Below, piece by piece: positions 21,829-56,264 of a DNA stretch of 64,000 bases (the stretch's first letter is position 1; each line of letters begins with the position of its first letter). Source of the DNA: a virus. The DNA lies in the IMG/VR virus record IMGVR_UViG_3300033153_008203, positions 81,070 through 145,069 of that record. One strand, written 5' to 3'. Below the pieces are notes generated by a model. That model saw only the letters and a list, made by a program, of their open reading frames with translations, was not told where the DNA came from and did no database searches. The position numbers were made by a program, and so were the translations under genes.

Positions 21829-22547
21829 TAGAATTTAAGTCCCCCTTTTAAATAATTTTTCATTCTTTCTTCTGAGCTTTTTTTCATCATAAGATCGCTT
21901 GCTGAAAGAGCCATATCTGTTTGAAGTCTCTTAGATGTATCTGTATCTGGAAGCATAGGTCTAATATCTTGTGCTATGTATTGCACTACATTTTCTGTGA
22001 AGAAGTCCTCTATAGACATTGTAATACCTTCAGATATTATCTCAACCCCGTATATTACTAGTGAAGATGCGGCTCCATATTCGTTTGCAAAAGTTACAGT
22101 TACATCGAATCTTGGAAGCTGATCTATGAGAGGCGTAGACAAATCGCTACTTGTATCAGGAGCTATCCTTTTCATAAGATCATACAAGACTTGCTTATTG
22201 AACATCGTAAAGATCATAGTTCCACTTATTGTACGTGGGCCTCTTGTAAAACCTTTTGGATATCCCATTCCTATTGTTCTTACAGGATATTTTTCCCGAT
22301 AAATAGAATAAGAAAGCGTCTGTATGTCTCCTAGGACTAGTGGCTTACTAGAGTGTTCAGTGTCATTCTCTTGTCCTGTTCCTTTTTCTTCACCTGCTTT
22401 ATTAATAGGCAAGAAGTCTATTGGGATATGAACAATAGCTTTGATGTCTGCTCCACTATACACGTCGTATCCTGATGGAGCGTCTATGTCTTGCTGTAAG
22501 CTAGTCGCATATGCAGCAGATGAGATATTATTATTAGTATTTGCCAT
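21828..22547 (-). CDS. tail tube-fold protein (tube initiator/baseplate tube-like)
   Basis: YSGADI...SYSIYREKYPV...GFTRGPRTISGTMIF...FDVTVTFANEYG...IYGVEI, a clear paralogue of 22625-23263. Start placed at the ATG at 22547. Confidence 0.75.
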   Translation of the reverse strand: MANTNNNISSAAYATSLQQDIDAPSGYDVYSGADIKAIVHIPIDFLPINKAGEEKGTGQENDTEHSSKPLVLGDIQTLSYSIYREKYPVRTIGMGYPKGFTRGPRTISGTMIFTMFNKQVLYDLMKRIAPDTSSDLSTPLIDQLPRFDVTVTFANEYGAASSLVIYGVEIISEGITMSIEDFFTENVVQYIAQDIRPMLPDTDTSKRLQTDMALSASDLMMKKSSEERMKNYLKGGLKF

Positions 22548-22557
22548 TGTCACCTAC

Positions 22558-22624: not shown

Positions 22625-23263
22625 TTATACTGGATCCCCTACGTTAGCAACAGGATTCTGTACAGTCCAAGGAGCTATACCACGGCACACATAAGTGTAC
22701 TGTTGTTCTGAGACTATGTCATCAATGCTGACTCCATATCCTTCGTTAAGGATTTCAACGCCATAGATTCTCATAACTGAAACTGCACCATATTCGTTAG
22801 CTGCACTTAATGTTACATCGAAAGGCAACATTTGATCTGTGTACCAAGGTTTATCAGCTGCTTTCTGTGCACCTGATGTAGGGACACCTATCAGTTCGCC
22901 TTCTTGTACGTTGGTAAGCTGGGTTATTCCAGCAAGAGTCGTTGCTCCACCAATGCTTGATCCTGTTGGCTCATTCAATGAAGAAAAACCTGGAGGTCTT
23001 GGGTCATTTTTCTCGGCTGCAAACTTGAACCCACCCATCTCGTCAAGCAATGCATTCCTATCAAACATTGTGAATATTAGTGATCCTGCTATGCCTCTTT
23101 TACCTCTAGAAAAAGCTCTTGGATCAGGTGAGCCCATCGTATAAATAGGGGCCTTTTCTCTTGTAACAGAGTAACTTATGCCTTGCAAGGCGCCAATTAC
23201 TTGGCTACCAAACACAGCAGTTATGTCTACTCCGCTAAAAGAGTTATATGCCTGTTCTGCCAT
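22625..23263 (-). CDS. major tail tube protein
   Basis: Directly downstream of the sheath, with strong SD AAGGAGG and a following terminator. Tube-type beta-strand pattern. Confidence 0.8.
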   Translation of the reverse strand: MAEQAYNSFSGVDITAVFGSQVIGALQGISYSVTREKAPIYTMGSPDPRAFSRGKRGIAGSLIFTMFDRNALLDEMGGFKFAAEKNDPRPPGFSSLNEPTGSSIGGATTLAGITQLTNVQEGELIGVPTSGAQKAADKPWYTDQMLPFDVTLSAANEYGAVSVMRIYGVEILNEGYGVSIDDIVSEQQYTYVCRGIAPWTVQNPVANVGDPV

Positions 23264-37314: not shown

Positions 37315-37758
37315 TTATATAGTGTTCTCTGTATAACTAAGTCTTAATGATACGTCAAGCTTTAGCCCTACATGTATTCCTCTTGGTGATGTTATTCTAT
37401 ACCAAAATGGTTCGCTTCCTATGCCACTTAATTCATTTGGATCATCTGGAATTGAAACAGATGCTCCCGCCGTTATTGTAGCCCATTCAGCATCTGATGG
37501 CTGAAGATTTCCAAGACTAATCTTAATACTCCATCCAGACTGAATCCCCTCTATATCATTAGGATACTCTGTGTCAGCAAAATCAATTACAACATCAGTG
37601 TATTCTTTTGCAGCATCATCGTTTCTTACATATAAAAGAACATCTCTAGATTGCTCTACACGTCCATCATGAACTGTTGTAATTGGATTTGTCTGGTCGC
37701 CGTTAGATGAGTAAGCAGTCCATTCTCCACCATCTAAATCTACTACTTGAATTCCCAT
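37315..37758 (-). CDS. hypothetical beta-sandwich virion protein
   Basis: 147-aa beta-rich ORF (LYVRND, PFWYRI) coupled to the terminase stop. Confidence 0.55.
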   Translation of the reverse strand: MGIQVVDLDGGEWTAYSSNGDQTNPITTVHDGRVEQSRDVLLYVRNDDAAKEYTDVVIDFADTEYPNDIEGIQSGWSIKISLGNLQPSDAEWATITAGASVSIPDDPNELSGIGSEPFWYRITSPRGIHVGLKLDVSLRLSYTENTI

Positions 37759-40700
37759 TAGATATTGCTCCTGCTAGGTCTTGAGTTTCTAGTTTTACTG
37801 ATTCCTTTTCTAATCACTTTACTATTTACATTATTGTACCCTTTAATCATTCCTGGCAAACCCCTGCTAAGAATCATATCGCTCTCTATGGAAAATCTTT
37901 CTTGAGGTCTTGCTGCATCTCTTTTATTATCAGCTTGCTTTCTTCTGTAACTGTTCTCTATTACAAGCTCAATTGTTCCTGGCATAGGCGCTTTCTTAGA
38001 AGCTGGCATATCACCAAAAGAACCACCAAATGAAACTGCACTAATAACAAGTGATTGACCAAACTCTGTGTATTCCATTGTAAATGCAAGTAGCGCTAGT
38101 ACCATAGCATCTAGCTCATGGTCTCCAACTCTCTTATTTCCCTGAGCATATACTGGCGCACCAGACTGAGTCCTTCTTTCAACTACGTAACCAAGCAACT
38201 CTTGCTCAAGTTCATCGTCATGTTTTGACAACTCTATTAGGTCGTGCTCAAAATACCTTACTGAGTTCTCTATCATGTATGGCTTAGCAGGCTTATTTTC
38301 CGTTATACCAGTCCTTATGTTTCTGGTTTCAAGAGTACCGCCAGCACTAATACCTTTTACATATCTAAGCATAGAATCAGGATGAGCTGCACCTACCTCA
38401 CTAAGACTCTTTTCTCCAAACTGTTGAAGCAACTCTATTTGAGTCGTACCGAATCCAGCATCACAATAAATATGTGCACATTGCCAGTATTTATTTACTT
38501 CTCTTATTTTGTCTATTGCTATTAACTGAGTCCATCCAACTCTATCTACACAGTGTTTTGCTACAATTCTATATTTATTCTTAGCTGTGTCGTGCCCTAT
38601 AATACAAATCTGCGTACCTATGGCTGTGTCGTTCCAGTCCACACCCATTGTATAGATCCATCCATCCATTCTTTTCTGTTCTTCATACTTGTATTCCGTT
38701 AAAGCCTTATCAACATACTGGTTCTGATAAACGCCTTCTACTTCTTCTCCAAACTCAGCAAGGATCTCGTGCTGATATCCGGCCTCTGTTCCAGCATCAA
38801 GCCTGGCATCCCTATCCATCTGATCATTCCAGAAAGGAAGAACTGTTGAAGGATAATGAAACTCTCTAAATCTTGAGTCATGGCACTGGTCATAGAAACG
38901 CTCTCTACGACCTGTTGGAGTACTACTAGTCCATAACGTAACATTTGGGTTAGTATAAAGAATCGCTCCAATAGCATTAAGGTCATCAGGATCAAGGTAA
39001 TCGGCCTCGTCAAGATATAGTGCATCAGCAGAGTTATGAACAATAACATTATTTGCTATAAAATTATGTGTATCGCTAACCTCTATGTCATATGCTAACT
39101 CTTTCCCGATATAGAATATGGATTTAATTGTATCCAGAACGACATTATTGCTTTCAGACTTGTGATATTGGCTCTTAGTTTTATGTTTAACTAAATCAAA
39201 AACTTCAGCGCAAATCTCTTCTTTTCCATAAATATATCCTATATCAGACAAAAACCTTCTAACATAAAAGCCAGATCTAACTTTAACGATATATTGTTTA
39301 GCAGTATTATAGTGCTCCCATTTCTTATCTCTTTCTTGTATTTTTGATACAACTCCGAGTTCAGCTAGTAATTCTTGTAGCTCATGAGCCAACCGCTTAG
39401 ATACTGTGCAATATCCGATCTCTACTTGTGGTCCTCTCTTTTGATTAGAGTAACAGCACCAGCCATCTGTTGCAAACAGTTTTCTTATGAATAGTTTTTT
39501 ATTCTCTTTTGTGCTTGTTTTGATTATAGATGGGACGTGCTTATCGTATGAGAGTTTGTTTGCAACTTCATACTTTTCTAGAATGTCTAGAATGTGTTTA
39601 TGTTTTATTTTAAGACCACTTACCCTGATATTTTTAGTGTTTTTCGTTTCTTTCTTATTTTGAATACCAAAATAAACGTCCTTTTTATCAAGAATGTTGG
39701 TAAAATCATTAAGAATTTTTACATTTTCATTTATAAAATCAATAGCACCACGATCAATTACCTTCTTACCACAGCTTCCATCACCTATCATATATGCTGC
39801 AAACGATATCTCATCTTCATCTAACGCATTAGCTTTCTCAAGATCATAGTCAACAACATAAGACAGATTATCTCCTACTCTCCAGTCTTTAAGGCTTTTC
39901 CATTCAAATTTATTCCCAGCCCTAACCACATTAGAATCATGTCTAGTACCAACTCTTCCATATAGTTCATGATCTTTGCTGCAACTTATTGATCTTCCTG
40001 ACTCAAGTTTAACTTCAAACAGATCTTTTACATTTGACTCAAAAACATGACTAACTGTTCCAACCACTTTATTATTATACTCATCAACTGAAACAACTCT
40101 GTCTCCAACCATAATGTCTTTAATGTTCTTTGCTTTACCTGAAGCCATTAGTACTGCAGAATCGCACCTTAAGCACTGGCCTCTTACACCGTCTCCCTTA
40201 GATCCGCTTCTAGAACCAGAAGTAAACAGTTTTATAATAGATCCATTATGTAGCTCTATTTCTGCATAAGGAGTCTTAACATTTCTTTTGAGGGAATTTT
40301 TTAAATCATTAGAATCAAATATAAGCTCTATCAATCTGTCATAAATGACCTGAGCATGAGACTTCTGTGGGCATACAACAAGAATATCATGACCATTTCT
40401 AGTAGACGCATTGTACAATATGTTTATGCAAAGGGAATCTGTTTTTCCTGATCTACGACCAATTCGTGAAATTTTTCTTTTTGCATCACACCTAAGCATT
40501 GTAGCTTGATATTCTATGTCATCTCTAGATGTACGTGGGTGCCAATCAAGAACAGCAGCTGCCCATCCAATAGGATCAAGCAAAGAGTTTGCTGCTTTTG
40601 CTTGTGCATCAGTTAAGGTTTTGCCTGATTGCTTTGCAAGCTTATATGCTGCCGGAAATATACCGGTACAATCTGCATCGAAAGTTCCATCCTTCGATTT

Positions 40701-40766
40701 AGCCATTACCTTTTCTCTACAACGAAGACACTCTTCGCTTATGTTAGGATCATTAAAATCTGGCAT
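37758..40766 (-). CDS. terL: terminase large subunit (intein-containing)
   Basis: Walker A GRRSGKT, Walker B LYLDEAD, STPTG coupling motif, and RNase H-type nuclease motifs MGVDWN and DHELDA. Confidence 0.95.
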   Translation of the reverse strand: MPDFNDPNISEECLRCREKVMAKSKDGTFDADCTGIFPAAYKLAKQSGKTLTDAQAKAANSLLDPIGWAAAVLDWHPRTSRDDIEYQATMLRCDAKRKISRIGRRSGKTDSLCINILYNASTRNGHDILVVCPQKSHAQVIYDRLIELIFDSNDLKNSLKRNVKTPYAEIELHNGSIIKLFTSGSRSGSKGDGVRGQCLRCDSAVLMASGKAKNIKDIMVGDRVVSVDEYNNKVVGTVSHVFESNVKDLFEVKLESGRSISCSKDHELYGRVGTRHDSNVVRAGNKFEWKSLKDWRVGDNLSYVVDYDLEKANALDEDEISFAAYMIGDGSCGKKVIDRGAIDFINENVKILNDFTNILDKKDVYFGIQNKKETKNTKNIRVSGLKIKHKHILDILEKYEVANKLSYDKHVPSIIKTSTKENKKLFIRKLFATDGWCCYSNQKRGPQVEIGYCTVSKRLAHELQELLAELGVVSKIQERDKKWEHYNTAKQYIVKVRSGFYVRRFLSDIGYIYGKEEICAEVFDLVKHKTKSQYHKSESNNVVLDTIKSIFYIGKELAYDIEVSDTHNFIANNVIVHNSADALYLDEADYLDPDDLNAIGAILYTNPNVTLWTSSTPTGRRERFYDQCHDSRFREFHYPSTVLPFWNDQMDRDARLDAGTEAGYQHEILAEFGEEVEGVYQNQYVDKALTEYKYEEQKRMDGWIYTMGVDWNDTAIGTQICIIGHDTAKNKYRIVAKHCVDRVGWTQLIAIDKIREVNKYWQCAHIYCDAGFGTTQIELLQQFGEKSLSEVGAAHPDSMLRYVKGISAGGTLETRNIRTGITENKPAKPYMIENSVRYFEHDLIELSKHDDELEQELLGYVVERRTQSGAPVYAQGNKRVGDHELDAMVLALLAFTMEYTEFGQSLVISAVSFGGSFGDMPASKKAPMPGTIELVIENSYRRKQADNKRDAARPQERFSIESDMILSRGLPGMIKGYNNVNSKVIRKGISKTRNSRPSRSNI
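39033..40175 (-). mobile_element. intein with LAGLIDADG endonuclease (381 aa) in terL
   Basis: VRGQ|CLRCDS ... AYDIEV..HNFIAN.VIVHN|SADALYLDE. Blocks FAAYMIGDGSC and LFATDGWC. Inserted just before Walker B. Confidence 0.95.
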
Positions 40767-46202: not shown

Positions 46203-46651
46203 TATCTATCGTCTCCTGATCCTTGAAGTTTACCTCTTGCTTTACGTGACGCTAACTTTTCAAGGTTATATTTGGCTATATCGCTAAGCTTAACCTCGAA
46301 GACTCTTGCTGTTTCTGCCAAATACCACAAAACGTCAGAAAGCTCAGATTTTACTACATCTTTAGCCATCTCATATATCTCACCAGTTTCTTTGTCTCTA
46401 TATGTTCCCTGGTGATCTCTAACTATCTTTTTAAGTTTACCAAGAACTTCTCCTGCTTCATTAGCCAGACCCATTGCTGGGTAGATATAATCAGCATCAT
46501 TGTGTTTTCCGTCACTATCTACTACTATGATTTTAGGATAAATAGCTGTCTTTGCTGCTTCTTCCTGATATGTGTCAAAATTAATTTCGGCGCAAACTTC
46601 TTCCTCTGTAATGTCTCTTGTATTAGTCTTACCTTTCTTAATTATACTCAT
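46202..46651 (-). CDS. mazG: MazG-like nucleotide pyrophosphohydrolase
   Basis: GLANEAGEV...ELSDVLWYL...NLEKLASR..RG.L.GSGDDR. Confidence 0.9.
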   Translation of the reverse strand: MSIIKKGKTNTRDITEEEVCAEINFDTYQEEAAKTAIYPKIIVVDSDGKHNDADYIYPAMGLANEAGEVLGKLKKIVRDHQGTYRDKETGEIYEMAKDVVKSELSDVLWYLAETARVFEVKLSDIAKYNLEKLASRKARGKLQGSGDDR

Positions 46652-46935
46652 TATATCTTTTCCGCTTTTATTATGTATGTGGTTCCGTCTACTGTTACAA
46701 TGCCACCAAAATAATCTGACCTTACTGTTAACCCTGATCCAGAAGAATCAGTAATTATATCTCTTAGTCCCAGTTGTTTTATAACGCTTAAAATACAATT
46801 TTCCAATAGACTCATACTGGCAGGATTTTCGTGCTTATCATCGCCAACACTAAATGTTGCACCAGGATTCTGCAAAGCTTTTCCAAGAGCTTCAAGTGCC
46901 ATTCCTGTTGTCTTTCCGTATCTTCTTACTTCCAT
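46651..46935 (-). CDS. small protein with a terminase-type Walker A start (RRYGKTT)
   Basis: RRYGKTT followed by helix and strand, as in TerL RRSGKT. No Walker B. Confidence 0.6.
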   Translation of the reverse strand: MEVRRYGKTTGMALEALGKALQNPGATFSVGDDKHENPASMSLLENCILSVIKQLGLRDIITDSSGSGLTVRSDYFGGIVTVDGTTYIIKAEKI

Positions 46936-47207
46936 TATTTTATACTCTCCTTTTTAATCCCTTCACACATAATAGTTATCTCTTTCTTGGCTTGTGCTAT
47001 CGTATCGAGCACATTGTCTATATCCTTAGCCTCCTTACAAGACTTATCAATAAACGCAACACATGTCTTCTCAAGAGTTGGGTAGTAAGTTGGATGCTCT
47101 TTTCTGTATTTTTCTCCAGTAACCTTATTAACAGCGTCTCTAAATTGAACTAAAGTCCAGTTATATGGATCATGTGATACACTGAAGTCCTTATTTATCT
47201 TTATCAT
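46935..47207 (-). CDS. hypothetical phage protein
   Basis: 90-aa ORF with ATGA overlap and SD GAGGAG. Confidence 0.6.
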   Translation of the reverse strand: MIKINKDFSVSHDPYNWTLVQFRDAVNKVTGEKYRKEHPTYYPTLEKTCVAFIDKSCKEAKDIDNVLDTIAQAKKEITIMCEGIKKESIK

Positions 47208-47449
47208 TTCTTCTCCTCTGCCTTATCGGCTACTTCAATAGGGATAGTGTACTCTACCATAAATACTCCATCACTTATGCTTGTACTTATGATTTGGGCG
47301 GCGGTATATTTTTGAATATCATAAAGAAACGTATTAATAGACCCTTCTTCTTGACTAGCAAGCTCAAACACTTCTATCTGGGTAACTCTCTGTTTAATAC
47401 TCTCGTTCATAGTCACTCCTATTTCTTTTAGTTTCACTATATCTATCAT
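47204..47449 (-). CDS. hypothetical protein
   Basis: 81 aa. Resembles the C-terminal domain of 48431-48994. Confidence 0.55.
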   Translation of the reverse strand: MIDIVKLKEIGVTMNESIKQRVTQIEVFELASQEEGSINTFLYDIQKYTAAQIISTSISDGVFMVEYTIPIEVADKAEEKK

Positions 47450-47585
47450 TATGCATATTTGTCATGTGGTCTTCTAGGATTTTTTCTGCTCTAAGCAATG
47501 TCCTTATATAGTCTTCCTCTTTCTCATAAATCGATATTACAACTTTATGACAGTAGGGACATATATGATATATTGTATTCTTCAT
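47394..47585 (-). CDS. C2H2-like Zn-finger protein
   Basis: CPYC...HMTNMH. Start moved to the ATG at 47585 after GAGG. Confidence 0.5.
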   Translation of the reverse strand: MKNTIYHICPYCHKVVISIYEKEEDYIRTLLRAEKILEDHMTNMHNDRYSETKRNRSDYEREY

Positions 47586-47695
47586 GCATCTTCCTCGCGC
47601 AGCTATTGGCATAGCTTAGCATTGTAAGCAGCCCCTGTCGTAAAACATCGATTAAAAAAAACAACTCTGCCGTTAATCACAGGTTTTTAAAAAAA

Positions 47696-48421
47696 TTAGA
47701 CAACCCTCTTAAGTACGTGTTTTTTAATTATTCTCTTCTCGTTCTTCATCGCGTCAAGAATCTCTTGTCTTATCTTTTTTTCAATTCTCTTTGTTGCTTT
47801 TTCTTTCCATTCGTTATATAGTTGCTCATGGTTTTCAAAGGATATGTATCTATCTATTATTGGTGGGTCTTCTACAGCTACTGGAAAGTCACTTCTAGCA
47901 CAAGTCCTACATCCTATTTCTGCAGTAGGTATTTCTTCTATAGTTGAGTGCTTACATCCATTACATTGTGGTGTTAGTGCTTGTATTGCTGATGGATATG
48001 CTGGCATCATAGATTCTCCTGGTGCTCTTGTTGCTAATGGGTTATCGTATAAAGGAGGATACTCTCTTGTTACACTGTTGTTTGTGGTTACACTTGATAA
48101 GTTTGAGCCGCGTGAATGAATACCTGCTCGTTCATTTGCGATTAAAGAAGCTAACTGTACATGTGTTTCTCTTTGTCTTTGGTGTTCTGGAGATCCAGGG
48201 TAATAGATTCCTGGTGTTATTGTTGCTGTTCTTGATAGACTTGGGTCTTCGTATCCTGGTGGTACAGATGGTTGTATACTTGTTTGCTGTGGTTGTGCAC
48301 CTACAGACCATCTTCTTCTGGATTCTATGTTGTCTCTTAATGAAGTACTGTTCTTAGTAGGAAGTAATCCTGCTAGGCCTTGGTCTCTTAGTCTTATTAC
48401 TATTGCTTTGAATGGGTTCAT
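47696..48421 (-). CDS. hypothetical protein, disordered Pro/Ser-rich N-terminus plus Cys cluster
   Basis: CNGCKH...CRTC. Confidence 0.55.
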   Translation of the reverse strand: MNPFKAIVIRLRDQGLAGLLPTKNSTSLRDNIESRRRWSVGAQPQQTSIQPSVPPGYEDPSLSRTATITPGIYYPGSPEHQRQRETHVQLASLIANERAGIHSRGSNLSSVTTNNSVTREYPPLYDNPLATRAPGESMMPAYPSAIQALTPQCNGCKHSTIEEIPTAEIGCRTCARSDFPVAVEDPPIIDRYISFENHEQLYNEWKEKATKRIEKKIRQEILDAMKNEKRIIKKHVLKRVV

Positions 48422-48430
48422 TGTTATTCT

Positions 48431-48994
48431 TTATATGGATATAGGGTATGTTCCTACTGGTACTGAGTAATGGACTGAGTACTTGCATTGGTCAGAAAGT
48501 GTCTGTATAGAAATAATATTCCCGCCAGACTCTCTTACTCTGTGTATGAACTCATTCATTTTAGCAGGATGACTTGCGTAAGAGTTTCCATTAGGATCAT
48601 AGTAGTACTCAGTATAAGAATACTCGATCATTGTAACAAGCTCTTTCATCTCTACTTTAGGTTCAGGAACCGGCTCAGGTGCTGATATATGAGTATCGTA
48701 CTCTTGTCTAAGAGAAGACCTCTCTTTAAGACCAAAAGCGCTATTCACAGCATGTCTATTAATGACAGGAACTGATGATTTAAAGTCATACTCTTCAGCA
48801 TGATAACCATCTAAAGGACATTCTTCCCATATGTATCCAGTTTTTAATATATCCTCAAAGACTCTTCCAACTATGTCACCATCTGCATATGCGCTACACT
48901 GAGCCATAGTCGTATCATATACCGTGCCATCATGGTCATATTGACTACAATTAGGACACATATAGCAACTTATTACCTCAAACTTCTTACTCAT
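48431..48994 (-). CDS. two-domain hypothetical protein (Cys-rich N-terminus)
   Basis: CYMCPNC...C...CPL. Start moved to 48994 after AGGAG. Confidence 0.6.
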   Translation of the reverse strand: MSKKFEVISCYMCPNCSQYDHDGTVYDTTMAQCSAYADGDIVGRVFEDILKTGYIWEECPLDGYHAEEYDFKSSVPVINRHAVNSAFGLKERSSLRQEYDTHISAPEPVPEPKVEMKELVTMIEYSYTEYYYDPNGNSYASHPAKMNEFIHRVRESGGNIISIQTLSDQCKYSVHYSVPVGTYPISI

Positions 48995-49310
48995 CGTCTC
49001 TCCTATCACTACAAAACTCACAATTTGGGTCACTACATTTAGGCTCTAACCAAGTGTTGCATTCAGAACAGAAGTAGGCATCATGTGTCTCGCAGTACTC
49101 ACCAAGAGAACTACACTTGTCACATCTGAGCACAGCAGTTGTATATAGCATTTCTGCATACTCTATCTCGTCTTCATGTGTGATTCTTGCTCTCTTTTCT
49201 TGCATAGTTTGTGCTTCATAGGTGTCTTTAAACTCGTTATCTTTCCATGGCTTACACATACTACAGCCGGCTCTGCTACTCTTTCTTTTTTCTCTCTTAT
49301 GGTTTGCCAT
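48987..49310 (-). CDS. Cys-rich Zn-binding protein
   Basis: CSMCKPWK and CDKC...HDAYFCSECNTWLEPKCSDPNCEFC. Confidence 0.65.
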   Translation of the reverse strand: MANHKREKRKSSRAGCSMCKPWKDNEFKDTYEAQTMQEKRARITHEDEIEYAEMLYTTAVLRCDKCSSLGEYCETHDAYFCSECNTWLEPKCSDPNCEFCSDRRDDE

Positions 49311-49464
49311 ACCTTCCTAATTCCTTTTTAATTATCCTATTAATTTCGTCTTCTGTTAAACGAGATTTAACGGAGACGCCACAATCATCACACTTTAACG
49401 TGATTGACAACTCAAGACAATCAATGACTCCCCTAGTATTCTTATGTTCGCAATCGTCTATCAT
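49297..49464 (-). CDS. small Zn-ribbon protein (55 aa, below ORF-track cut-off)
   Basis: MIDDCEHKN...KCDDCG...; TAATG-coupled to 49464-49724. Confidence 0.55.
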   Translation of the reverse strand: MIDDCEHKNTRGVIDCLELSITLKCDDCGVSVKSRLTEDEINRIIKKELGRYGKP

Positions 49465-49724
49465 TAGTGAGTAGTATAGTCGTCTTCGTCTTCTTCGTAG
49501 TTTACTGTAGCAACAATCTCGTTAGTATCTGCATCAATAAGCCTTACAAGCTGATATTCAAACAACAAATCAGGGTTAGACGCATCTTCAATAAGAACGG
49601 ATATCACAGGGTTAGTCATGGCTTCATCCACATCGTCCTGCACTACAGATGTTTCTACATAACCTTCTTGGTCACTAAGGTCACAATAATCTATTAGTTC
49701 TAGATCATCTAATCTATTCGGCAT
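49464..49724 (-). CDS. highly acidic small protein (possible DNA mimic)
   Basis: 25 Asp/Glu against 2 Arg and 0 Lys in 86 aa. Confidence 0.6.
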   Translation of the reverse strand: MPNRLDDLELIDYCDLSDQEGYVETSVVQDDVDEAMTNPVISVLIEDASNPDLLFEYQLVRLIDADTNEIVATVNYEEDEDDYTTH

Positions 49725-49917
49725 CTTCCTTGTCTCCTTCTTTAAACTCTGCTTCTGGTAATGGACAATCTGATGATATTAAATCATTCATGACTGCAAA
49801 TGTTATATCTCTTAGATCTGTATCTTTAATCGACCTACACATATAGCTATTCTCGGTCAATTCATGTTGTCTTACATATGGACATACGGAACACTTAACT
49901 ATTGGTATATATCTCAT
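49714..49917 (-). CDS. small Cys-rich protein
   Basis: CSVCP...C...CPL, the same pattern as the N-terminus of 48431-48994. Confidence 0.6.
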   Translation of the reverse strand: MRYIPIVKCSVCPYVRQHELTENSYMCRSIKDTDLRDITFAVMNDLISSDCPLPEAEFKEGDKEDAE

Positions 49918-50369
49918 TAAACCTCTACTCCTATTGTATAAAATTCCATTTCTTTTTCAGTTAACGGTTCAGATTCAATCGCTCCAACAGGACCTTTTCC
50001 AAAATCTTTCATATATGGGCTTCCTGTTGCTCTGAACTTCCATATTCCATCTTTATTGGTTACAAAAGTATTTTGAACCTTAACTCCTTCTGGTTCCATC
50101 ATTAGAAAGACATCTCCTTTTTTCAAGTCCATGAAATCTACTTCTGTCATATATATTCTTGGAGGATTTGGTACGCCTTCCATTACGTACACAGGTGCTG
50201 GATTACGGTTTAATTTATATGTAGTTCTACGTTGCTGACTATCGTCTATTGTACTGTCTTTACAATCGCTACACAATTCGTATACTACTGTTTTATCTTT
50301 AGACATACATCTACACTGTGAGATTACAGTATTACAATTAGAACAACGAGTTATTTGATGGCTATGCAT
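49917..50369 (-). CDS. hypothetical protein with N-terminal Zn finger
   Basis: H...CSNC...CRC...CSDC. Confidence 0.6.
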   Translation of the reverse strand: MHSHQITRCSNCNTVISQCRCMSKDKTVVYELCSDCKDSTIDDSQQRRTTYKLNRNPAPVYVMEGVPNPPRIYMTEVDFMDLKKGDVFLMMEPEGVKVQNTFVTNKDGIWKFRATGSPYMKDFGKGPVGAIESEPLTEKEMEFYTIGVEV

Positions 50370-50371
50370 AA

Positions 50372-50794
50372 TTAACCCCAGGTCTTGTGTACTTCTGATA
50401 TGCTTTCTATACCATCATAGTCACTTATCTCGTAATCTACATTATCAGGTATATCTACAACTTTTAGTTCTGCACAGTCTCCATTGGCTTCTTTGCCAAG
50501 TGCTTCTACTACTTCTATAAGGAGAGAGTCTGTTCTTTCTAAGCCTCCTGAGTACCAATATGTATCGTCACCTGGATATTCAGAAAAACTATCCCCGTGA
50601 TCCTTGGTGTACGTACTTGTAAACATACTCGTATCATCAGACCCTACTTTCTCGTACAGCGCCTCTCCATCACTGTGCTTGTACTTAGTCTGCTTATACC
50701 TATAAAGCTTCATCTGAGACTTCTCTGCATATAGGTCTTCTGCCTTAGCACTCAAACCGAAACCGCCATAACATTTGTTTATAATTATCTTCAT
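50372..50794 (-). CDS. conserved phage hypothetical protein (CYGGFGLS family)
   Basis: MKIIINKCYGGFGLS...RTD..LIEVVEALG..ANG..AELKVVDIP...YDGIESI.E.H..W, a pattern I recognise from many phages. Function unknown. Confidence 0.75.
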   Translation of the reverse strand: MKIIINKCYGGFGLSAKAEDLYAEKSQMKLYRYKQTKYKHSDGEALYEKVGSDDTSMFTSTYTKDHGDSFSEYPGDDTYWYSGGLERTDSLLIEVVEALGKEANGDCAELKVVDIPDNVDYEISDYDGIESISEVHKTWG

Positions 50795-51123
50795 TACTTG
50801 CCTCCAATTTCCGCTGCTACTTTATATAGATCGTTAGATAAGTTACGTATACGACCACATTCATTGCCAAGATAACCACATGTACTTTGATCTATGTCAG
50901 ACCCAAACATTGTATCACTAATATTCTTAACTATATCAGAAGTCCTAATAGCCATACAACGCAACTTGTTGGCTACTTCCTTATCTCTGCTGCTTATCTC
51001 AGGACACTTATATCCTTCCCTAGGAACAACTATCATATGTACATGGGTGTAACCTGGCTCTATTTTAATGGGTAGACTATTTTTGTTTAAACGCTTTAGG
51101 TCGCGGCTATTGAATATCGTCAT
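50794..51123 (-). CDS. hypothetical protein
   Basis: 109-aa ORF coupled to its neighbours. Confidence 0.55.
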   Translation of the reverse strand: MTIFNSRDLKRLNKNSLPIKIEPGYTHVHMIVVPREGYKCPEISSRDKEVANKLRCMAIRTSDIVKNISDTMFGSDIDQSTCGYLGNECGRIRNLSNDLYKVAAEIGGK

Positions 51124-51124
51124 A

Positions 51125-51329
51125 TTATTGTCCTATATCCAATGGAACCTCATAAAAAAATAAATCCACAATTACTACACATACGCTCTATCATCTCTTC
51201 TGGTGCCGACATCCAACGCTGAGAGTTACCATCAGGCATATGAAAAAACTTTCCCTTTGGAAGAAACTTATCAGATATCTCCTCACATCTACACTTAATG
51301 CACTTCATATCTTTGCTGTACTTGTTCAT
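51125..51329 (-). CDS. small Zn-ribbon protein, probably frameshifted at a T7 run
   Basis: ATG 51329 after GAGG and a consensus promoter. CIKC...CSNCG. As written it stops at 51150; removing one T at 51154-51160 gives ...FYEVPLDIGQ* abutting the next start. Confidence 0.55.
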
Positions 51330-51356
51330 CTAATTCCTCTCTAATTGTATTACTCT

Positions 51357-51385
51357 ATTATAGCGGGGAAATTCGATTTTGTCAA
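51357..51385 (-). promoter_or_regulatory. consensus sigma70 promoter
   Basis: TTGACA-N17-TATAAT, exact match. Confidence 0.9.
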
Positions 51386-51398
51386 GTGTTTTCTTATT

Positions 51399-51818
51399 CT
51401 ATTTCCAATTATAAGTTTCTGAATTACCAAGGTGAACATTTACCCTAGCAGAAAGTACAGCAGAGCCCAAACAGCGTCTTACAGGCTCTTTCATCTCATG
51501 AACGTTACATACTATACATATACTCTCAAACGTCCTCATATGGAAGTCCTCGGGCTCTGAGAGCAGACTTATGGAGGAGTTTGTATTTCTATATATTAAG
51601 AATGTCCCATTCTGAGTTCCAATATAATCTGGAGCACTAAGACTCATAGGACGTGGCTCTGTTTCTAAGTAATGTATGACTTTATCGTATACAGTTCTTT
51701 TCTCACTAGGTAGACAAACAATTCCCACATTTTGATACTCATTAGGTGGAGCACATGATATAACCGCCTTATTCATCATTCTCGTAAATCTGTAATCTCT
51801 ATTCGGTATCTTAACCAC
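51399..51818 (-). CDS. degenerate terminase ATPase-like fragment lacking Walker A/B
   Basis: NVGIVCLPSEKRTVYDKVIHYL aligns by eye to TerL DILVVCPQKSHAQVIYDRLIELI, and NSSISLLS to NGSIIKLFT. Confidence 0.5.
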   Translation of the reverse strand: MVKIPNRDYRFTRMMNKAVISCAPPNEYQNVGIVCLPSEKRTVYDKVIHYLETEPRPMSLSAPDYIGTQNGTFLIYRNTNSSISLLSEPEDFHMRTFESICIVCNVHEMKEPVRRCLGSAVLSARVNVHLGNSETYNWK

Positions 51819-52015
51819 TATTTGACCTCATTATCAAAGATACTACACTTATAAGCACATGTATTTACTGCTGATATTATGCCGGAGCAAATATGCTCTT
51901 CCTCACAAAAAAGATAAGCATCTGAAAACACTTTCCCACTTATATCAGCATCAACACCAACGACTGATATCGAACTACCATTCTTATTCTCTACGCTTAA
52001 CCATAACCAGTACAC
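51818..52015 (-). CDS. hypothetical protein
   Basis: 65-aa ORF in the operon. Confidence 0.4.
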   Translation of the reverse strand: MYWLWLSVENKNGSSISVVGVDADISGKVFSDAYLFCEEEHICSGIISAVNTCAYKCSIFDNEVK

Positions 52016-52191
52016 TCGTGCTGAACATCTGCATCTCTTAAAGCTTCTATAATATGGTCATATGTTGTAGTCCTATCAAGAAAATAAGTAACAACCACAA
52101 TCTTTCTAACACAAGGCCAAGTGAAGTCATGTAGTATCTTCCTTAGCATTCTCTTTGCTCTATACTTTTGATTTGGTATACCGTTCTTCAT
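51997..52191 (-). CDS. hypothetical protein
   Basis: 64-aa ORF, TAATG-coupled to the mini-tube gene. Confidence 0.5.
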   Translation of the reverse strand: MKNGIPNQKYRAKRMLRKILHDFTWPCVRKIVVVTYFLDRTTTYDHIIEALRDADVQHECTGYG

Positions 52192-52550
52192 TATATAACC
52201 TTACAAGCAATACACTCGCATTCCTTAGAAGGATTGTGCCACCACGTAACACATTGTAGGTCAAACGCGTTTACTTCGCCGGGGATTATTTCTTCTCTCG
52301 CTGTAATACCATGAATAGACATTATCTTCTCATTACCATATTCATCAGAACAAGATAATATAAGATCGGATTTAAAATTAAGATCCATAGCACTAATATA
52401 TTCCTCTTCGTCTAACACAGCTATACTAGCTGTTTGACCTTCAACAGATATCGCCCTGATCTTGCCTATCTTAACGTCGCTCTGGTAAACATCCATATTT
52501 ACCCCACTGAAACCATTGAAACTAAATTCATCTGCTGTATTACTCTTCAT
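52191..52550 (-). CDS. miniature paralogue of the tail tube protein (internal hairpin deleted)
   Basis: Gap-free blocks FNGFSGVNM...IGKIRAIS vs YNSFSGVDI...IGALQGIS, and DLILSCSDEYGNEKIMSIHGI vs DVTLSAANEYGAVSVMRIYGV. SD AAGGAG. Confidence 0.8.
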   Translation of the reverse strand: MKSNTADEFSFNGFSGVNMDVYQSDVKIGKIRAISVEGQTASIAVLDEEEYISAMDLNFKSDLILSCSDEYGNEKIMSIHGITAREEIIPGEVNAFDLQCVTWWHNPSKECECIACKVI

Positions 52551-52577
52551 TTCTTTCTCCTTTAGTTTGATTATCTT

Positions 52578-52606
52578 AGTATAGCGACTTTATCTAGTTT
52601 TGTCAA
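52578..52606 (-). promoter_or_regulatory. near-consensus sigma70 promoter
   Basis: TTGACA-N17-TATACT directly upstream of 52550. Confidence 0.85.
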
Positions 52607-52609
52607 GTT

Positions 52610-53053
52610 GTTTCTATTAGTTGTTAATTTTAGGCAATACTACGCCAAGAGGCTATCGTGATAAACTAGGAAGCGAGTGATTAAACCCAATTCCATTTAC
52701 TTAGCCTCTAATAGATAAAATATATACTAACAGTTGTAAGAAAGAAAATATTTACTCGGATGTAGATTTTTTTTGCAAGTGTCCCACCACTTTCTAGTAT
52801 CACGATGAAGCATCCTCATATCTATCTTGACTACTGCTCTAGTCTAACAGGGGTCGCTCTTCCACGGCATGGCTAGTGTTGTTCCGTTTCGAGGAGATGT
52901 TAATTCAACTCCTAAACCCTATTCTCCTTCTCTTGTAACAAGTTATCACTTCTTTCATATAGCTATAATCAATAACTTAAGTAAGTCATCGATCTGTATT
53001 ACTGATAAGCCCAATGTAGGAGAAACTGTTTAAAACTACATTACTTTAATCAT
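52610..53053 (-). ncRNA. candidate ~450-nt structured non-coding RNA
   Basis: Lies downstream of a consensus promoter. The longest ATG-ORF I found is about 30 codons, with no good SD. Several hairpins, e.g. AGAGGCTA/TAGCCTCT and GACTA/TAGTC. Confidence 0.35.
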
Positions 53054-53059
53054 TACTCT

Positions 53060-53088
53060 ATTATAGCGGGGGATTTTGTTTTTGTCAA
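53060..53088 (-). promoter_or_regulatory. consensus sigma70 promoter
   Basis: TTGACA-N17-TATAAT. Shares CCCCGCTATAATAGAGTAA with the promoter at 51357. Confidence 0.9.
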
Positions 53089-53746
53089 GCTTTTTCTTGT
53101 TTTTTCATAAAGAAATATAACTTTTCAATATCTTCAAAAGATCCATTATTCTTCATTTGATTGGCTTTACAAGAAATAACCTGAACATTTTTAGGAACGT
53201 AGCCAATTGAGTTGTCTATTCTGTCTAAGGTTGGACTATTATCTCTAGGGCCCGAAACACCAGTCCTACTTGAAAAAATTTTAATCCCTAGTATCGGGCA
53301 TACGTCTGGAATGATAACATGCTCTTCTAATATTGAGAATTCAAGCCCATTGGTCTTGGCTCTATGCTTTGCGCCTTTAAGCATTTTATAGGCCCTGTTT
53401 TTTCTCTGTGCTTTAAAGATAGAGACTCGTAATGCTCAAGATCTTTTTCTCTATGCTTTTTTGCTAAAGCGTTTGAGCATTCTTTGCATTTAGTTTGCTT
53501 CCCATGTTTTCCTCTTTTTAGCTTTGCGAATAAATCGAGTGTTTTAGTTTTTTTGCAACCTGTGCATTTCTTATGGGTAGGTATTTGTTCTTTTGGTTTA
53601 TTTTTCTTCTTTTTCTTACGATATTGCTTTTGATACTCTTCAAGACATTTTTTACATGTGTATTGAAGCTTGTCTTTACTGTTGCTATTAAAACTGAATC
53701 CGCTTATGTCTTTGTCTTGTTTGCATATATTACAATGTTTAGTCAT
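53085..53746 (-). pseudogene. Zn-finger/HNH-type homing endonuclease split by a -1 frameshift
   Basis: CxxC repeats in 53327-53746 and nuclease PTLDRIDNSIGYVPKNVQVISCKANQMKN in 53085-53384. One extra A in the run at 53398-53403 fuses them (HREKNRAYKMLKGAKHRAK). Confidence 0.75.
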
Positions 53747-53768
53747 TTTAATCCTTCTTGTTGTTATT

Positions 53769-53777
53769 AGTATAACA
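53769..53777 (-). promoter_or_regulatory. extended -10 promoter of the HNH gene (TGTTATACT)
   Basis: TGnTATACT about 23 nt upstream of ATG 53746. Confidence 0.5.
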
Positions 53778-54021
53778 CACTTTAAAGAAAAAATGACTAA
53801 AAAATAAAATAAATCTAATAGGAAGGCTTGGTACAGGAAATAATATCCCGCCGCTACATATGTACGTGTAACGACGAGAAAGACTCTAAAATAGGTAAAT
53901 TGAACTGAAAAATTTCTGAAAATTAATAAACAGTGATTGCTAGGTGATTCATAGTGATTAACGGATGTTTGACTGTAAACTGCTCACAGTCCCTGTACGT
54001 AGTACAGTGGCGCGAAGTGAA

Positions 54022-54317
54022 TCATAAACCGTATGGATCAACATCTGTTGCTGTAAATTTGTAAGTTGCACCTTCATCATTAAACATGTCCACTTGTATT
54101 TTGCATCCTGTTATGATTCTTTTCCTGATACAATGCACGTGTTTTTATCAAGTGCAATTTTATTACCATCACAACGCTTATATGGAACTAAAAAAGAACC
54201 TGAAATTTCTTTTGTGATTTTCGTAGGTGATGTAGTTAGTGATACTGTCTTTTTTACATTCATTTTAAAGTCGTCTATGTCAACTGATAATGGTCCGTTT
54301 GCTACAAATGATTTCAT
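54022..54317 (-). CDS. mini tube-like protein, frameshifted at an A4 run
   Basis: Paralogue of 54317-54577 (GP..DI.D, ISGSFLV). Adding one A at 54120-54123 restores GKRIITGCKI...YKFTATDV, matching the paralogue C-terminus. Confidence 0.6.
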
Positions 54318-54577
54318 TATGACTCCTTTTCTAATCCTTGTGCTATAAATTCAAACTCTGTGCCATATAACTTGATGTCTCTCGAAGTAATACGACATTC
54401 TGTGATAAGCCATCTATTTCCATGTACACAATCTATAATTGTGAATTCACTTGCCATATTCAAGTCTTTAGCATAGATTTTTACTAAAAATGATCCCGCG
54501 ATTAATGCATCGTCTGTTACGGTTGTTTCTAAGTCTTCTATGTCTAGCGCATCGGGGCCTTTTACTAAGATTGTCAT
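54317..54577 (-). CDS. mini tube-like protein
   Basis: Start moved to 54577 (SD GAGGAG, downstream of the promoter). IAGSFLV...ITECRI...FEFIAQ resembles tube strands IAGSLIF and YTFIARD. Confidence 0.55.
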   Translation of the reverse strand: MTILVKGPDALDIEDLETTVTDDALIAGSFLVKIYAKDLNMASEFTIIDCVHGNRWLITECRITSRDIKLYGTEFEFIAQGLEKES

Positions 54578-54602
54578 ACTATACTCCTCTAAGCGTATGT
54601 AT

Positions 54603-54631
54603 ATTATAACAAGTGTTCGCCGATTTGTCAA
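54603..54631 (-). promoter_or_regulatory. consensus sigma70 promoter with extended -10
   Basis: TTGACA-N17-TATAAT with TG at -15/-14. Confidence 0.9.
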
Positions 54632-54638
54632 GGGAAAT

Positions 54639-55037
54639 CTAGTGTTTAGTCCTCTTTCTTCCACCTTTATCCATGGCTTTTGTTACTGAGTCTACTAGGC
54701 CATTAGAACAGAATGGTTTCTCGATGTAATCACATACTCCTCTTGCCAGTAAGCAAGTCTTACTCGCTGTTCCTGTCGCTGTAAGCACAACTATTGGTAT
54801 ATCGTTTATTGCATTCATTAATGCAGTCTTTTTTACAAAAGTGCAACCATCCATTCCTGGCATTTTAAGATCAAGAAGTATTGCGTCTAAATTCTCATTA
54901 TGTGCAATCTCTATTGCTTCTTCTGCAGTATTTGTAGTGAGGACATTAAATCCTTTAGTCTCAAATAAGAATTTAAGCATTGCTAGTATTTGATCATCAT
55001 CGTCAACTATTAACAGTGTGCTGTCTTCTTCAATCAT
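54639..55037 (-). CDS. stand-alone CheY-like response regulator receiver domain
   Basis: LLIVDDD, ILLDLKMPGMDG (phospho-acceptor Asp), VVLTA and YIEKPF. Start moved to 55037 (SD AGGAG). Confidence 0.92.
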   Translation of the reverse strand: MIEEDSTLLIVDDDDQILAMLKFLFETKGFNVLTTNTAEEAIEIAHNENLDAILLDLKMPGMDGCTFVKKTALMNAINDIPIVVLTATGTASKTCLLARGVCDYIEKPFCSNGLVDSVTKAMDKGGRKRTKH

Positions 55038-55146
55038 CTGTATTCTCCTGGTTTGAATTGTACTCATAAGCAAGGTGCAAGTCATAGATGTAGAGCGATA
55101 TTTAATATAAAAAGATTATTGGAAGATAATGCTAAACTATGTACGA

Positions 55147-56264
55147 TTAACCAGGTATGAAGGTATTCCCTTTGTGTTCGTTTTTAGTTGCCGTGATTAT
55201 CTGCAAGTTGTTTTCAACGTGTAATCCGCAAACCAATGGATGATGCATTGGTACGATATGATCGACATGAAAAGATACGTACCCAGCCTCTTTGTTTAGC
55301 CTACGCATCTCTCTGTAGATGAGTCTTATTGCTGTTGTGTCTCCCCCCAAGCTACTTTTGCTTCTTTGTGTCTACGTTTAATGCTTACTTTGTTCTCTTT
55401 TTTTCATGCTCTATGACGCTTTCTATAGTCGTCTTTGTTGTCTTGGTAGTGTTGAGATCGTTTCTTTCTTGTGCAATCTGTGCAGTAGTAGCTTAGGTGA
55501 TCTGGAGACTGATAGTTTATATAAAACTCTTTAAAGGTTTTTTCTGTGTTGCAGTGCTTGCACAGTTTTGTTTTATCAGTAAGGATTAGCGTGTCATATA
55601 GTGTTCTTATGGCTGGTTTATCGATTTTCAATGTATGTCGTTTTCTTTCTTCTTGAGTTGATACTGCTTTACATGAAGAACAATATTTGTTTCTGCCTTT
55701 ATTCAAGACTATATTGGTGCATTCTTTGTTTTTACATTGCCTGGTTGTAGGCACTAATAGCCTATCTGTATTTGTTTTGTATTTTTTTCTTGTTCTTCTC
55801 TTTTCTCTAACTATATCTGAACAATCAAAACACCAATATTGTTTTCCTCTATCTGTGTCTTTTAGTAATGAAAAGTGTCTTTTGGCTTTCATTTGTTTGC
55901 AAGAGTAACATTTTATTTTAGGTCTACGTTTTATGTCTGGGTTTAGCACGCCTTTTCTGTGTCTTATCGCTGCGTTGACGCAGTCCCGACATCTGCTATG
56001 AAATCCAGACTGCTCATGCTTAACAATCTCAAACAACTCTATTGGCTTTTCTATTTTACATTTAGTGCATACTTTAGATATTAAATCTACTGAATCATAG
56101 GTTAAATCTTTATTTTTTTTCTTATATTCCTCTCTTTTTTGTTTTGCATATTTAACGTTACACTCTTTGCACCACCATTCGCGTCCAGTCTTATTTTTTT
56201 CTGAACGCTTTCTGTTACCAAATTCTAATTTACCTTTATTAATCTTGCATCTTGGGCACACCAT
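55147..56264 (-). pseudogene. Zn-finger-repeat HNH endonuclease disrupted by TGA and a frameshift
   Basis: Multiple CxxC repeats (55404-56264), in-frame TGA at 55404-55406, G6 run at 55343-55348, then HVDHIVPM....VCGLHVENNLQII....N..K.N. Confidence 0.75.

Follow-up and report, generated by a model that had tools for sequence, protein, structure and literature searches.

Several bacterial sensors, among them Avs1-3, Avs16, DSR2 and Upx, respond to phage components that are conserved, for example the terminase and the tail tube. The phage protein DSAD1 inhibits DSR2 by filling its tail-tube-binding pocket and, according to its authors, "mimics TTP to trap DSR2" (PMC10973363, PMC11263360). T4 vs.8, Ksap1 and Ksap2 are small accessory proteins resembling the terminase ATPase; they bind the terminase pocket of Avs2 and are suspected of an anti-defence role, but they activate Avs2 and do not block it (PMC13601566). 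The sensor Avs16, in turn, contacts the β-hairpin of the tube (PMC13581612). How a phage could escape tube and terminase sensors without changing essential proteins is the question on which the set of genes described here bears.

We analysed the final 64 kb (the window) of a 145-kb IMG/VR record that derives from an uncultured myophage of about 190 kb. Five small genes that a preliminary description had singled out as mimics of late proteins, three tube-like (T1, T2 and T3) and two terminase-like (TL1 and TL2), are all present where they had been placed, on the minus strand. No relatives were found in the phage collection by megablast and blastn, an Rfam scan of 52400-54700 gave no match, and none of the five genes had a significant match in Pfam or PHROGs. 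When small ORFs were compared with the late proteins by BLASTP and by Smith-Waterman alignment with shuffles, T1 was the only match.

The late proteins of the phage itself served as references. Its three tail tube paralogues (22625-23263, 21828-22553 and 21079-21828, minus strand), which have phrog_9206 in common and more than 4800 homologues, lie immediately downstream of the sheath gene (23282-25210; PHROG E 8e-74). Since the tube profile had no match among PDB sequences, they are identified as tubes by their synteny with the sheath. The large terminase gene (TerL; 37758..40766, minus strand) carries a LAGLIDADG intein at residues 198-578, between VRGQ and SADALYLDEADY.

T1 and the tail tube of the phage

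T1 (119 aa; 52191..52550, minus strand) and the tube recognise each other in profile searches. Of the 885 ORFs of the genome, a 121-sequence tube HMM picked out the three tubes and T1 (E 2.8e-5) and no others, and the T1-family HMM, run genome-wide, matched only the three tubes (3.8e-7, 6.8e-4 and 0.016). In hhalign the two aligned over the whole length (E 8.6e-6), gaps falling at the tip of the hairpin and at an insertion, and positions 10-37 and 152-173 of the tube HMM fell on two tube-like blocks of T1, residues 9-36 and 62-83. T1 also keeps, in the order of the tubes, the motif (Y/F)N.FSG.(D/N)I ... IG followed by the C-terminal (N/D)EYG block. The similarity proposed in the preliminary description is thus confirmed and far above chance, and judged by these profiles T1 is a true, much shortened paralogue of the tail tubes of this phage.

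The conserved tube hairpin (ISYS.TREKAPIYTMGS.DPRAFSRGKRGIAG), which varies least within the family, is missing in 5/5 T1 orthologues. The region that bears it measures about 25 residues in T1 vs about 115 in the tube, T1 being devoid of some 26 residues of the hairpin segment and of a tube insertion of about 60 residues. T1 shows that loss of the hairpin need not entail loss of the tube core, which is useful for understanding tube assembly. The gene is not beside the sheath: it lies 29 kb from the late tail module, behind a sigma-70-type promoter. Its orthologues (P0002-P0004 and L009:4315-4641) give a dN/dS of 0.3, and a search for further relatives of T1 or TL1 in IMG/VR found none. A predicted complex of the tube with T1 scored below the mark.

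T1 further contains a TerL-like block (residues 32-64) and a CxCxxC tail. The block was matched by the TerL HMM (E 0.001, among the 885 ORFs), and in hhalign T1 aligned with the TerL ATPase profile at P=7.5e-6, the minimum P in 150 column shuffles being 0.004. The stretch corresponds to the Arg, the Walker B strand and the next helix of TerL (AVRGQSA..L.(F/L)DEADYL..DL), and all five orthologues and all 13 TerLs match one another there. At the level of DNA it is 47% identical to TerL; recent gene conversion and a copied intein homing site are thereby ruled out as its source. The likeness is at the motif level only, and T1 is not an ATPase. T1 thus looks like a tube/terminase mosaic in which a TerL-like Arg/Walker-B stretch replaces the hairpin. 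This stretch is newly recognised here and lends unexpected support to the terminase theme of the early genes.

Predicted barrel-fold and candidate terminase-like genes

T2 (86 aa; 54317..54577, minus strand) is all-β, and its AF2 model (pLDDT 89.9) has a predicted Hcp/tail-tube fold with no long hairpin. T3 (54022..54317, minus strand) is a frameshifted paralogue of T2, both pieces of which are matched by the T2-family HMM (E 5e-23 and 1e-11). The frameshift, already noted before, could be placed in an A4 run at 54120-54123, and orthologues of 98 aa are intact in relatives (P0137, L010:6330-6626). In 1.84 billion proteins the T2-type family is represented by 10 members, which conserve the motifs GP.A.DI, I.GSF.V, C.ITS and F.F.A. 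Profiles detected no sequence homology of T2/T3 to the tube or to T1 (hhalign E 0.41 and 0.071, respectively). A kinship between the T2 profile and a SprB-repeat adhesin (3464 aa, 31 weak repeats) was judged to be a summed β-strand pattern and was rejected.

The top Foldseek matches of the T2 model in the PDB were Hcp2-Hcp3, Hcp5 and the tubes of Pa193, E217, Mu, AFP and PVC. Its named matches in BFVD were tail tube proteins, and in the Atlas it matched Phage_tube_2, E217_Gp32 and T6SS_HCP at TM 0.73-0.78. The model superposes over the full protein on solved tube and Hcp chains, with VIA Z of 8-9.8 for tubes, although a tie in VIA with flavin-reductase and PilZ barrels remains. The PilZ c-di-GMP motifs RxxxR and (D/N)xSxxG are absent from the 10-row family alignment. 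T2 and T3 form a family apart from T1, and the model, a confident one, predicts an Hcp/tail-tube fold lacking the long hairpin. Hence the claim of three tube-like genes stands by homology for T1 and by predicted fold for T2 and T3, but a sequence link to the tube does not hold for the latter two; the long hairpin is indeed missing from all three.

TL1 (139 aa; 51399..51818, minus strand) belongs to a tandem multi-copy family; it weakly resembles the ATPase core of TerL, in register. A second copy (51818..52191, minus strand) is split into ORFs 51997-52191 and 51818-52015, which match the TL1 family in hhalign (P 2e-11 and 4e-7), and this twin is intact elsewhere at 125-126 aa (L010:7629-8009, L015:8295-8672). 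The TL1 orthologue L010:8477-8899 shows 59% identity and a dN/dS of 0.31. Compared by hhalign with a profile of four TerLs, TL1 gave P 7.4e-4 with 134 columns in register, and a weaker P 6.3e-3 with a broader profile of 13. TerL is the top-scoring non-family protein for TL1 in the genome, at P just 0.01, and Atlas features suggest three TerL ATPase families (0.84-0.85), which we take as leads only. Neither Walker A (G/RxxGK[ST]) nor Walker B (hhhhDE) is conserved in the eight members of the family; in the hhalign register PNRDYRF stands opposite TerL GRRSGKT and CIVCNVH opposite LYLDEAD. Searches with the family against Pfam and PDB sequences gave no terminase match, and an AF2 model from a 2-row alignment was unusable (pLDDT 35). 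Both TL1 and the split copy probably represent terminase-ATPase-like domains that lack the Walker motifs, the sequence link to TerL being marginal.

TL2 (94 aa; 46651..46935, minus strand) overlaps the start of MazG, 4.5 kb from the remaining candidate genes. Its N-terminal RRYGKTT-helix resembles the Walker A and helix of TerL and is the only part that aligns in hhalign (P 0.007-0.012; 23 columns at P 0.007). Eight homologues are 70-81% identical to TL2 (dN/dS 0.12-0.16); in a divergent L015 copy the N-terminal 25 aa are 84% identical vs 26% in the remainder. A complete ATPase core is missing, the Lys of the peptide is replaced by Asn in the homologue P0127, and the Atlas model resembles R3H/Jag and unnamed viral proteins in structure. 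TL2 shares a single Walker-A-like peptide with TerL and is not counted as a mimic. Two terminase-like genes had been proposed: TL1 keeps that status marginally (P 7e-4 to 6e-3), and TL2 loses it, its likeness being that one peptide. The description of the genes as disabled is unproven for T2, since Hcp proteins about equally small assemble into rings.

Promoters, selection and spread among relatives

On the gene strand we found three perfect (12/12) sigma-70 sites and one with 11/12 matches, in agreement with the host-RNAP-type promoters claimed for the accessory arm. One site (TTGACA-17-TATACT; 52578..52606, minus strand), conserved in L006 and L010, precedes T1 and leads on into TL1, and a perfect one (TTGACA-17-TATAAT; 54603..54631, minus strand) precedes T2/T3. 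These data support an early, variable, sigma-70-driven accessory region as the setting of the candidates. With dN/dS of 0.12-0.45 across all families vs 0.03 for a core gene, the codon comparisons indicate that all of them are under purifying but relaxed selection; the tube-like genes stand at 0.3-0.45.

The families are distributed unevenly among relatives, with 0-1 copies of T1, 0-3 of T2 and 0-4 of TL1. L009 has T1 and TL2 and lacks T2 and TL1; L010 has three T2-type and four TL1-type genes, and L015 three and two, both without T1. Two copies are frameshifted in the present genome. Such variable copy number and presence, together with frameshifts, is typical of arms-race genes, and the differing copy numbers allow relatives to be compared. 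Since the families were gained and lost independently, they are not one co-inherited system; the proposal of an organised system fails on this lack of co-occurrence and on the position of TL2 away from the others, beside MazG. The same arm of L010 carries a Lar-type anti-restriction gene.

Possible functions and known systems

The reading we favour, at a probability of roughly 0.35, is that the early arm holds three independent, quickly turning-over small-protein families that copy parts of late proteins and act as decoys for sensors. T1, T2/T3 and TL1 would be unable to form a tube or hydrolyse ATP, and would be made ahead of the real tube and terminase. They could then occupy cell proteins with affinity for tube or terminase monomers. 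The most plausible such targets are pattern-recognition sensors of host defence, which, we infer, would not be triggered by the mimics; each family would act as an independent module. A decoy function of these proteins is plausible. In its favour we count the homology of T1 to the tube and its missing hairpin, the TerL-like stretch of T1, the predicted fold of T2, the promoters, the relaxed purifying selection, the variable copy number, the Lar-type gene of L010, and the precedents of DSAD1 and of vs.8 and Ksap1/2 as binders of tube or terminase pockets. Against it we count the activation of Avs2 by vs.8 and Ksap1/2, the weakened link between TL1 and TerL, the tie of T2 with other barrels and the lack of co-occurrence. 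Further, the hairpin contacted by Avs16 is what T1 lacks, which argues against T1 as a decoy for that type of sensor.

In a related and unlikely scheme, the proteins would be early multi-epitope self-mimics that show active-site peptides of TerL on small unrelated scaffolds, blunting sensors that recognise tube or terminase, including those that read unfolded terminase strands. The Arg/Walker-B strand would be carried on the hairpin-less tube core of T1, the same TerL strand would lie in a 139-aa ORF at another place in the genome, within its acidic tail, and the Walker-A loop and helix would be the sole strongly conserved part of TL2; the minimal tube barrels of T2/T3 and the motif-less, ATPase-like TL1 would join the set.

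Satellites redirect helper assembly using homologues of structural proteins, and by this precedent the mini tubes and terminase-like proteins could be dominant-negative subunits directed against co-infecting or resident related phages, providing superinfection exclusion. They might do so by capping or poisoning tail-tube growth or packaging motors. The early promoters, the rapid turnover of the genes and the retention in T1 of core blocks for would-be lateral ring contacts, without the hairpin, are consistent with interference; but the phage's own tube and terminase, 34-79% closer than any rival's, would be exposed to these proteins as well, and nothing was found that discriminates self from rival, so that we consider it doubtful. 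Alternatively, the proteins might act in the assembly or timing of the phage itself, as chaperones or regulators that hold monomers of tube or terminase or as minor components of the virion. This would suit the purifying selection on the proteins and the frequent use of tube-fold paralogues as initiators, terminators and adaptors in myophages (PDB baseplate and neck chains were matched). Such a role is improbable, however, for genes that follow host-type promoters, at 29 kb from the tail module, and whose presence varies among close relatives with the same tube and TerL, assembly factors being normally conserved.

For T2 and T3 alone, the equal VIA Z of PilZ (PA4608, Z 8.9) and flavin-reductase barrels, a PilZ row in the Atlas list and a stand-alone receiver gene ahead of the T2-type genes of the window, of L010 and of L011 would suit small β-barrels, either PilZ-like or split-barrel, that signal or bind ligands and are partnered by the upstream receiver-domain protein. 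We give this little credence, as the top of the Foldseek PDB list is almost exclusively Hcp and tube, tail tubes are among the best named BFVD matches, the PilZ motifs are missing from the family, and L015 has three T2-type genes with no receiver gene called beside them. That the genes are functionless debris of duplication and illegitimate recombination, as the frameshifts in T3 and the TL1 twin and the mosaic look of T1 might suggest, is very improbable: ORFs are intact in several diverged phages with dN/dS well under 1, and there is a strong promoter per operon and a ribosome-binding site per gene. Conservation largely refutes it for T1, T2, TL1 and TL2. Early proteins built from sensed parts are concrete candidates for "self-mimic" counter-defence, or for inter-phage interference, and T1, in combining tube and terminase parts, makes such "self-mimic" proteins testable.

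As possible decoys, T1 and T2 resemble DSAD1 of phage SPbeta, the inhibitor of the DSR2 NADase, in being small, mostly β phage proteins; DSAD1 is not reported as a tube homologue, whereas T1 is by its profiles a true paralogue of its own tube and T2 has a predicted tube fold. The closest analogues of TL1 are vs.8 and Ksap1/Ksap2, small and lineage-restricted phage proteins whose structure, and in vs.8 also sequence, is akin to the terminase ATPase domain (PMC13601566). The protein vs.8 keeps Walker A and B, whereas TL1 keeps neither and has a marginal terminase link. The best Foldseek match of T2, Hcp2/Hcp3 of the Bacteroides fragilis T6SS (PDB 9vne; TM 0.71/0.69 over ~90 columns), is also a minimal tube-fold barrel of about equal size, but the T2 sequence is 11% identical (no similarity), and Hcp forms secreted hexameric T6SS rings whereas T2 is a phage early gene. 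Finally, T1 shares with the tail tubes of the phage clade an N-terminal FSGxD/N-I block followed by an (N/D)EYG block and, unlike them, has a TerL-like strand, a Cys tail and a location in the early arm.

T1, a small paralogue of the tail tube

T1 (52191-52550, minus strand) encodes a protein of 119 aa that is tube-like by both HMM and hhalign. Of all ORFs in the window, only the three tail tube paralogues of the phage and T1 (T1 E 1e-5) are matched by a tube HMM made from 121 sequences, and the same exclusive matches, three tubes plus T1 (T1 E 2.8e-5), were obtained with the 885 ORFs of the whole record. The match consists of two collinear blocks (HMM 10-37 with T1 9-36, and HMM 152-173 with T1 62-83). 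In the opposite direction, an HMM of the T1 family (five orthologues) matches the three tubes only (E 3.8e-7, 6.8e-4 and 0.016), and hhalign aligns T1 with the tube over residues 3-114 (E 8.6e-6, probability 83%). The hairpin, which is the most invariant segment of the tube, is missing from T1, as is a variable tube insertion of about 60 residues. Intact orthologues are the homologous proteins P0002-P0004 (67-79% identity) and a copy in the related phage locus L009 (L009:4315-4641, 34% identity), and the dN/dS of T1 is ~0.3. The preliminary description, which had seen in T1 a tube-like protein deprived of its hairpin, was correct on this gene. At residues 109-116, four of the five orthologues carry a C-terminal KEC(E/D)C.AC cysteine cluster, absent from the L009 copy, which may form a small metal site.

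T1 also contains a stretch resembling the large terminase (TerL). When we searched with an HMM for the ATPase domain of terminase, made from 13 TerLs of the clade, residues 32-64 of T1 were the best match in the genome after TerL itself (E 0.001, 885 ORFs). The aligned pair, VEGQTASIAVLDEEEYISAMDLN in T1 and VRGQSADALYLDEADYLDPDDLN in TerL, takes in the conserved Arg and the Walker B strand with the helix that follows it. When the profiles of T1 and TerL were compared, P was 7.5e-6 (probability 84%); shuffling the columns of the TerL alignment 150 times gave a minimum P of 0.004, and the reversed alignment gave P 0.56. The TerL HMM matches this stretch in 5/5 T1 orthologues (7.8-15 bits), and the T1 HMM matches 13/13 TerLs. 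T1 is tiled by two tube blocks (9-36 and 62-83) and one TerL block (32-64), and the Asp that ends the strand lies 10 residues from the Gly in both T1 and TerL, versus 15 in the tubes. Recent gene conversion from TerL as the source of the stretch is ruled out, since at the DNA level it is only 47% identical to the TerL of the same phage; old recombination or convergence may account for it. Outside the window, a 139-aa ORF (G000:C1:35594-36013, plus strand) with a coiled-coil N-terminal half has an acidic tail containing DTIRGRSKDAVHLDEANY, which shares 55% identity over 22 residues with the Arg/Walker-B segment of TerL; its match to TerL is weaker than that of T1 (HMM E 0.012, hhalign P 6e-4).

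Predicted small barrels and candidate terminase-like genes

T2 (54317-54577) and T3 (54022-54317), both on the minus strand, are paralogues of each other, and T3 is frameshifted in an A4 run at 54120-54123; a -1 tRNA-Lys slip in this run would bring the frame back. Intact T3 orthologues of 98 aa are P0137 and L010:6330-6626. Only 10 members of the T2/T3 family turned up when 1.84 billion proteins were searched exhaustively by profile, and those that could be traced all lie at the same place in related phages, in 1-3 tandem copies. HMM and hhalign searches found no sequence link with either the tube or T1. AF2 gave a high-confidence model of T2 (pLDDT 89.9, pTM 0.80), whose Foldseek matches in the PDB are nearly all Hcp or tail-tube chains, headed by the B. 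fragilis Hcp2-Hcp3 complex (TM 0.71/0.69, E 1e-3). Tail tube proteins are among the best named matches in BFVD, and the Atlas clusters Phage_tube_2, E217_Gp32 and T6SS_HCP match with TM 0.73-0.78. With a Foldseek-independent aligner, tubes (phiCD508, Z 9.7) were tied with flavin-reductase split barrels and PilZ (Z 8-9.8); PilZ motifs were not found in the family alignment. At the hairpin position of the tubes the family has a variable insertion of 0-15 residues. We conclude that T2 and T3 are minimal barrels of the predicted tube/Hcp fold without the long hairpin. The earlier view of them as disabled tube mimics holds for this predicted fold, but "disabled" goes further than the evidence, because equally small Hcps form rings. 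The T2-family profile also matches 31 SprB repeats of P0136, a giant adhesin-like protein of 3464 aa (summed E 1.5e-11), a match that probably reflects a beta-strand pattern and not kinship.

TL1 (51399-51818, minus strand) is one of a rapidly evolving family of proteins whose start reads IPN.DYR; a split copy, in two short ORFs, lies between T1 and TL1 (51818-52191, minus strand). The register proposed earlier was reproduced: residues 8-139 align with TerL from Walker A to past Walker B (hhalign, 134 columns, P 7.4e-4) with a profile of four TerLs from which the intein was removed. With larger profiles (13 TerLs versus 8 TL1 members), however, P rose to 6.3e-3, and Pfam and PDB sequence searches gave no matches. 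As single sequences, TerL is the top non-family match of TL1 among 182 genome proteins, at chance level (P 0.01), and the nearest named clusters by Atlas features are three different terminase ATPase families (0.84-0.85, rated leads only). We put the odds that TL1 is a motif-less terminase-ATPase-like domain at about even.

TL2 (46651-46935, minus strand) has an N-terminal peptide of RRYGKTT plus a helix. Homologues of TL2 are 70-81% identical. In a comparison with the divergent copy of L015, identity is 84% in the first 25 residues, which comprise this peptide, and 26% in the remainder, so the constraint lies in the N-terminal peptide. This peptide can be aligned with the Walker A loop and helix of TerL over 23 columns (P 0.007), and the Lys is Asn in one homologue. 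In structure, the Atlas model resembles unnamed viral proteins and R3H/Jag. The likeness is at the level of a motif and TL2 is not a terminase-like protein, contrary to its earlier listing as a terminase mimic.

A predicted early arm with independent families

The window covers bases 81070-145069 of a 145-kb linear IMG/VR virus record, which is ~75% complete, and the minus strand is the coding strand for genes up to ~56.3 kb of the window. The late module includes the sheath (23282-25210), the three tube genes directly after it (22625-23263, 21828-22553 and 21079-21828) and, with the major capsid protein and portal, TerL (37758-40766, 1002 aa), all on this strand. A LAGLIDADG intein (residues 198-578) splits the TerL ATPase domain exactly between VRGQ and SADALYLDEADY; an intein-free allele is found in L009 (L009:16218-18098), and the TerL of L014, L023 and L027 likewise looks intein-bearing.

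The small genes lie in an arm spanning ~44-56 kb, which has three perfect 12/12 sigma-70-type promoters on the gene strand (54631, 53088 and 51385) and one of 11/12 at 52606. Since about 0.002 perfect sites would be expected there by chance, the predicted setting, an early region read by the host polymerase, is well founded, as had been proposed.

The proposal of one organised system was not borne out, as the families are present or absent independently across related genomes. The window has one T1, two T2-type (one broken), two TL1-type (one broken) and one TL2 gene, and L006 has one of each. L009 keeps T1 and TL2, one copy each, with neither of the other types; L010 has no T1, three T2-type and four TL1-type genes (its TL2 region lies beyond the locus), and L015 no T1, three T2-type, two TL1-type and one TL2. 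Tandem TL1-type copies number 1-4 in relatives. In L010 the T1 promoter stands directly in front of a TL1-type gene, and TL2, 4.5 kb from the other genes, is tied to MazG. The pattern is that of a hypervariable early arm whose accessory families are independent of one another. The frameshifts in T3 and in the TL1 twin, both seen by comparison with intact orthologues, may reflect a pseudogene, slippage or assembly error.

Other genes share the arm. L010:10156-10473 encodes a Lar-type restriction-alleviation protein (PF14354); in window ORF 49917-50369, residues 1-45 alone match it (72% identity). Just upstream of the T2 promoter, 54639-55085 (minus strand) encodes a stand-alone CheY-type receiver domain protein (Pfam Response_reg, E 2e-22), 65-79% conserved in L009, L010 and L011. 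Zinc-ribbon-repeat plus HNH endonuclease genes, each two ORFs in the window, lie at 53085-53746 and 55147-56264 (both minus strand); the latter is a single ORF in L009:1487-2293, and the former sits between T2/T3 and T1, with no counterpart found in L006 or L010. Behind the perfect promoter at 53060-53088 there is an ORF-less stretch (52610-53053, minus strand), conserved in L006:9144-10001 and L010:7023-7629 (e.g. GGGTTTGGGAGATGAATTAACATTTCCCCGAAACGG) and with no Rfam match at E<=1.

Possible roles and known systems

The facts on which a mechanism can draw are that the small proteins derive from late proteins or have a shape like theirs, that the hairpin and the Walker motifs have been lost, that the promoters are of host type, and that the genes are under selection and turn over rapidly. 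The proteins would bind partners of monomeric tube or terminase. Rival explanations are that they interfere with related phages, that they have a role in the assembly of their own phage, that they include a barrel acting in signalling together with the receiver protein encoded next to it, or that they are debris.

The closest precedents are DSAD1, a protein that fills the pocket in which DSR2 binds the tube (PMC10973363, PMC11263360), and vs.8 and Ksap1/2, accessory proteins that resemble the terminase ATPase and fit the pocket of Avs2 (PMC13601566). Two comparisons count against a simple decoy: the part of the tube that Avs16 reads is the hairpin (PMC13581612), which T1 lacks, and vs.8 and Ksap1/2 trigger Avs2 and do not block it (PMC13601566). 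Finally, Upx has been proposed to thread unfolded terminase beta-strands (PMC13601566), which lends interest to the idea of a displayed terminase strand, though this idea is pure speculation.
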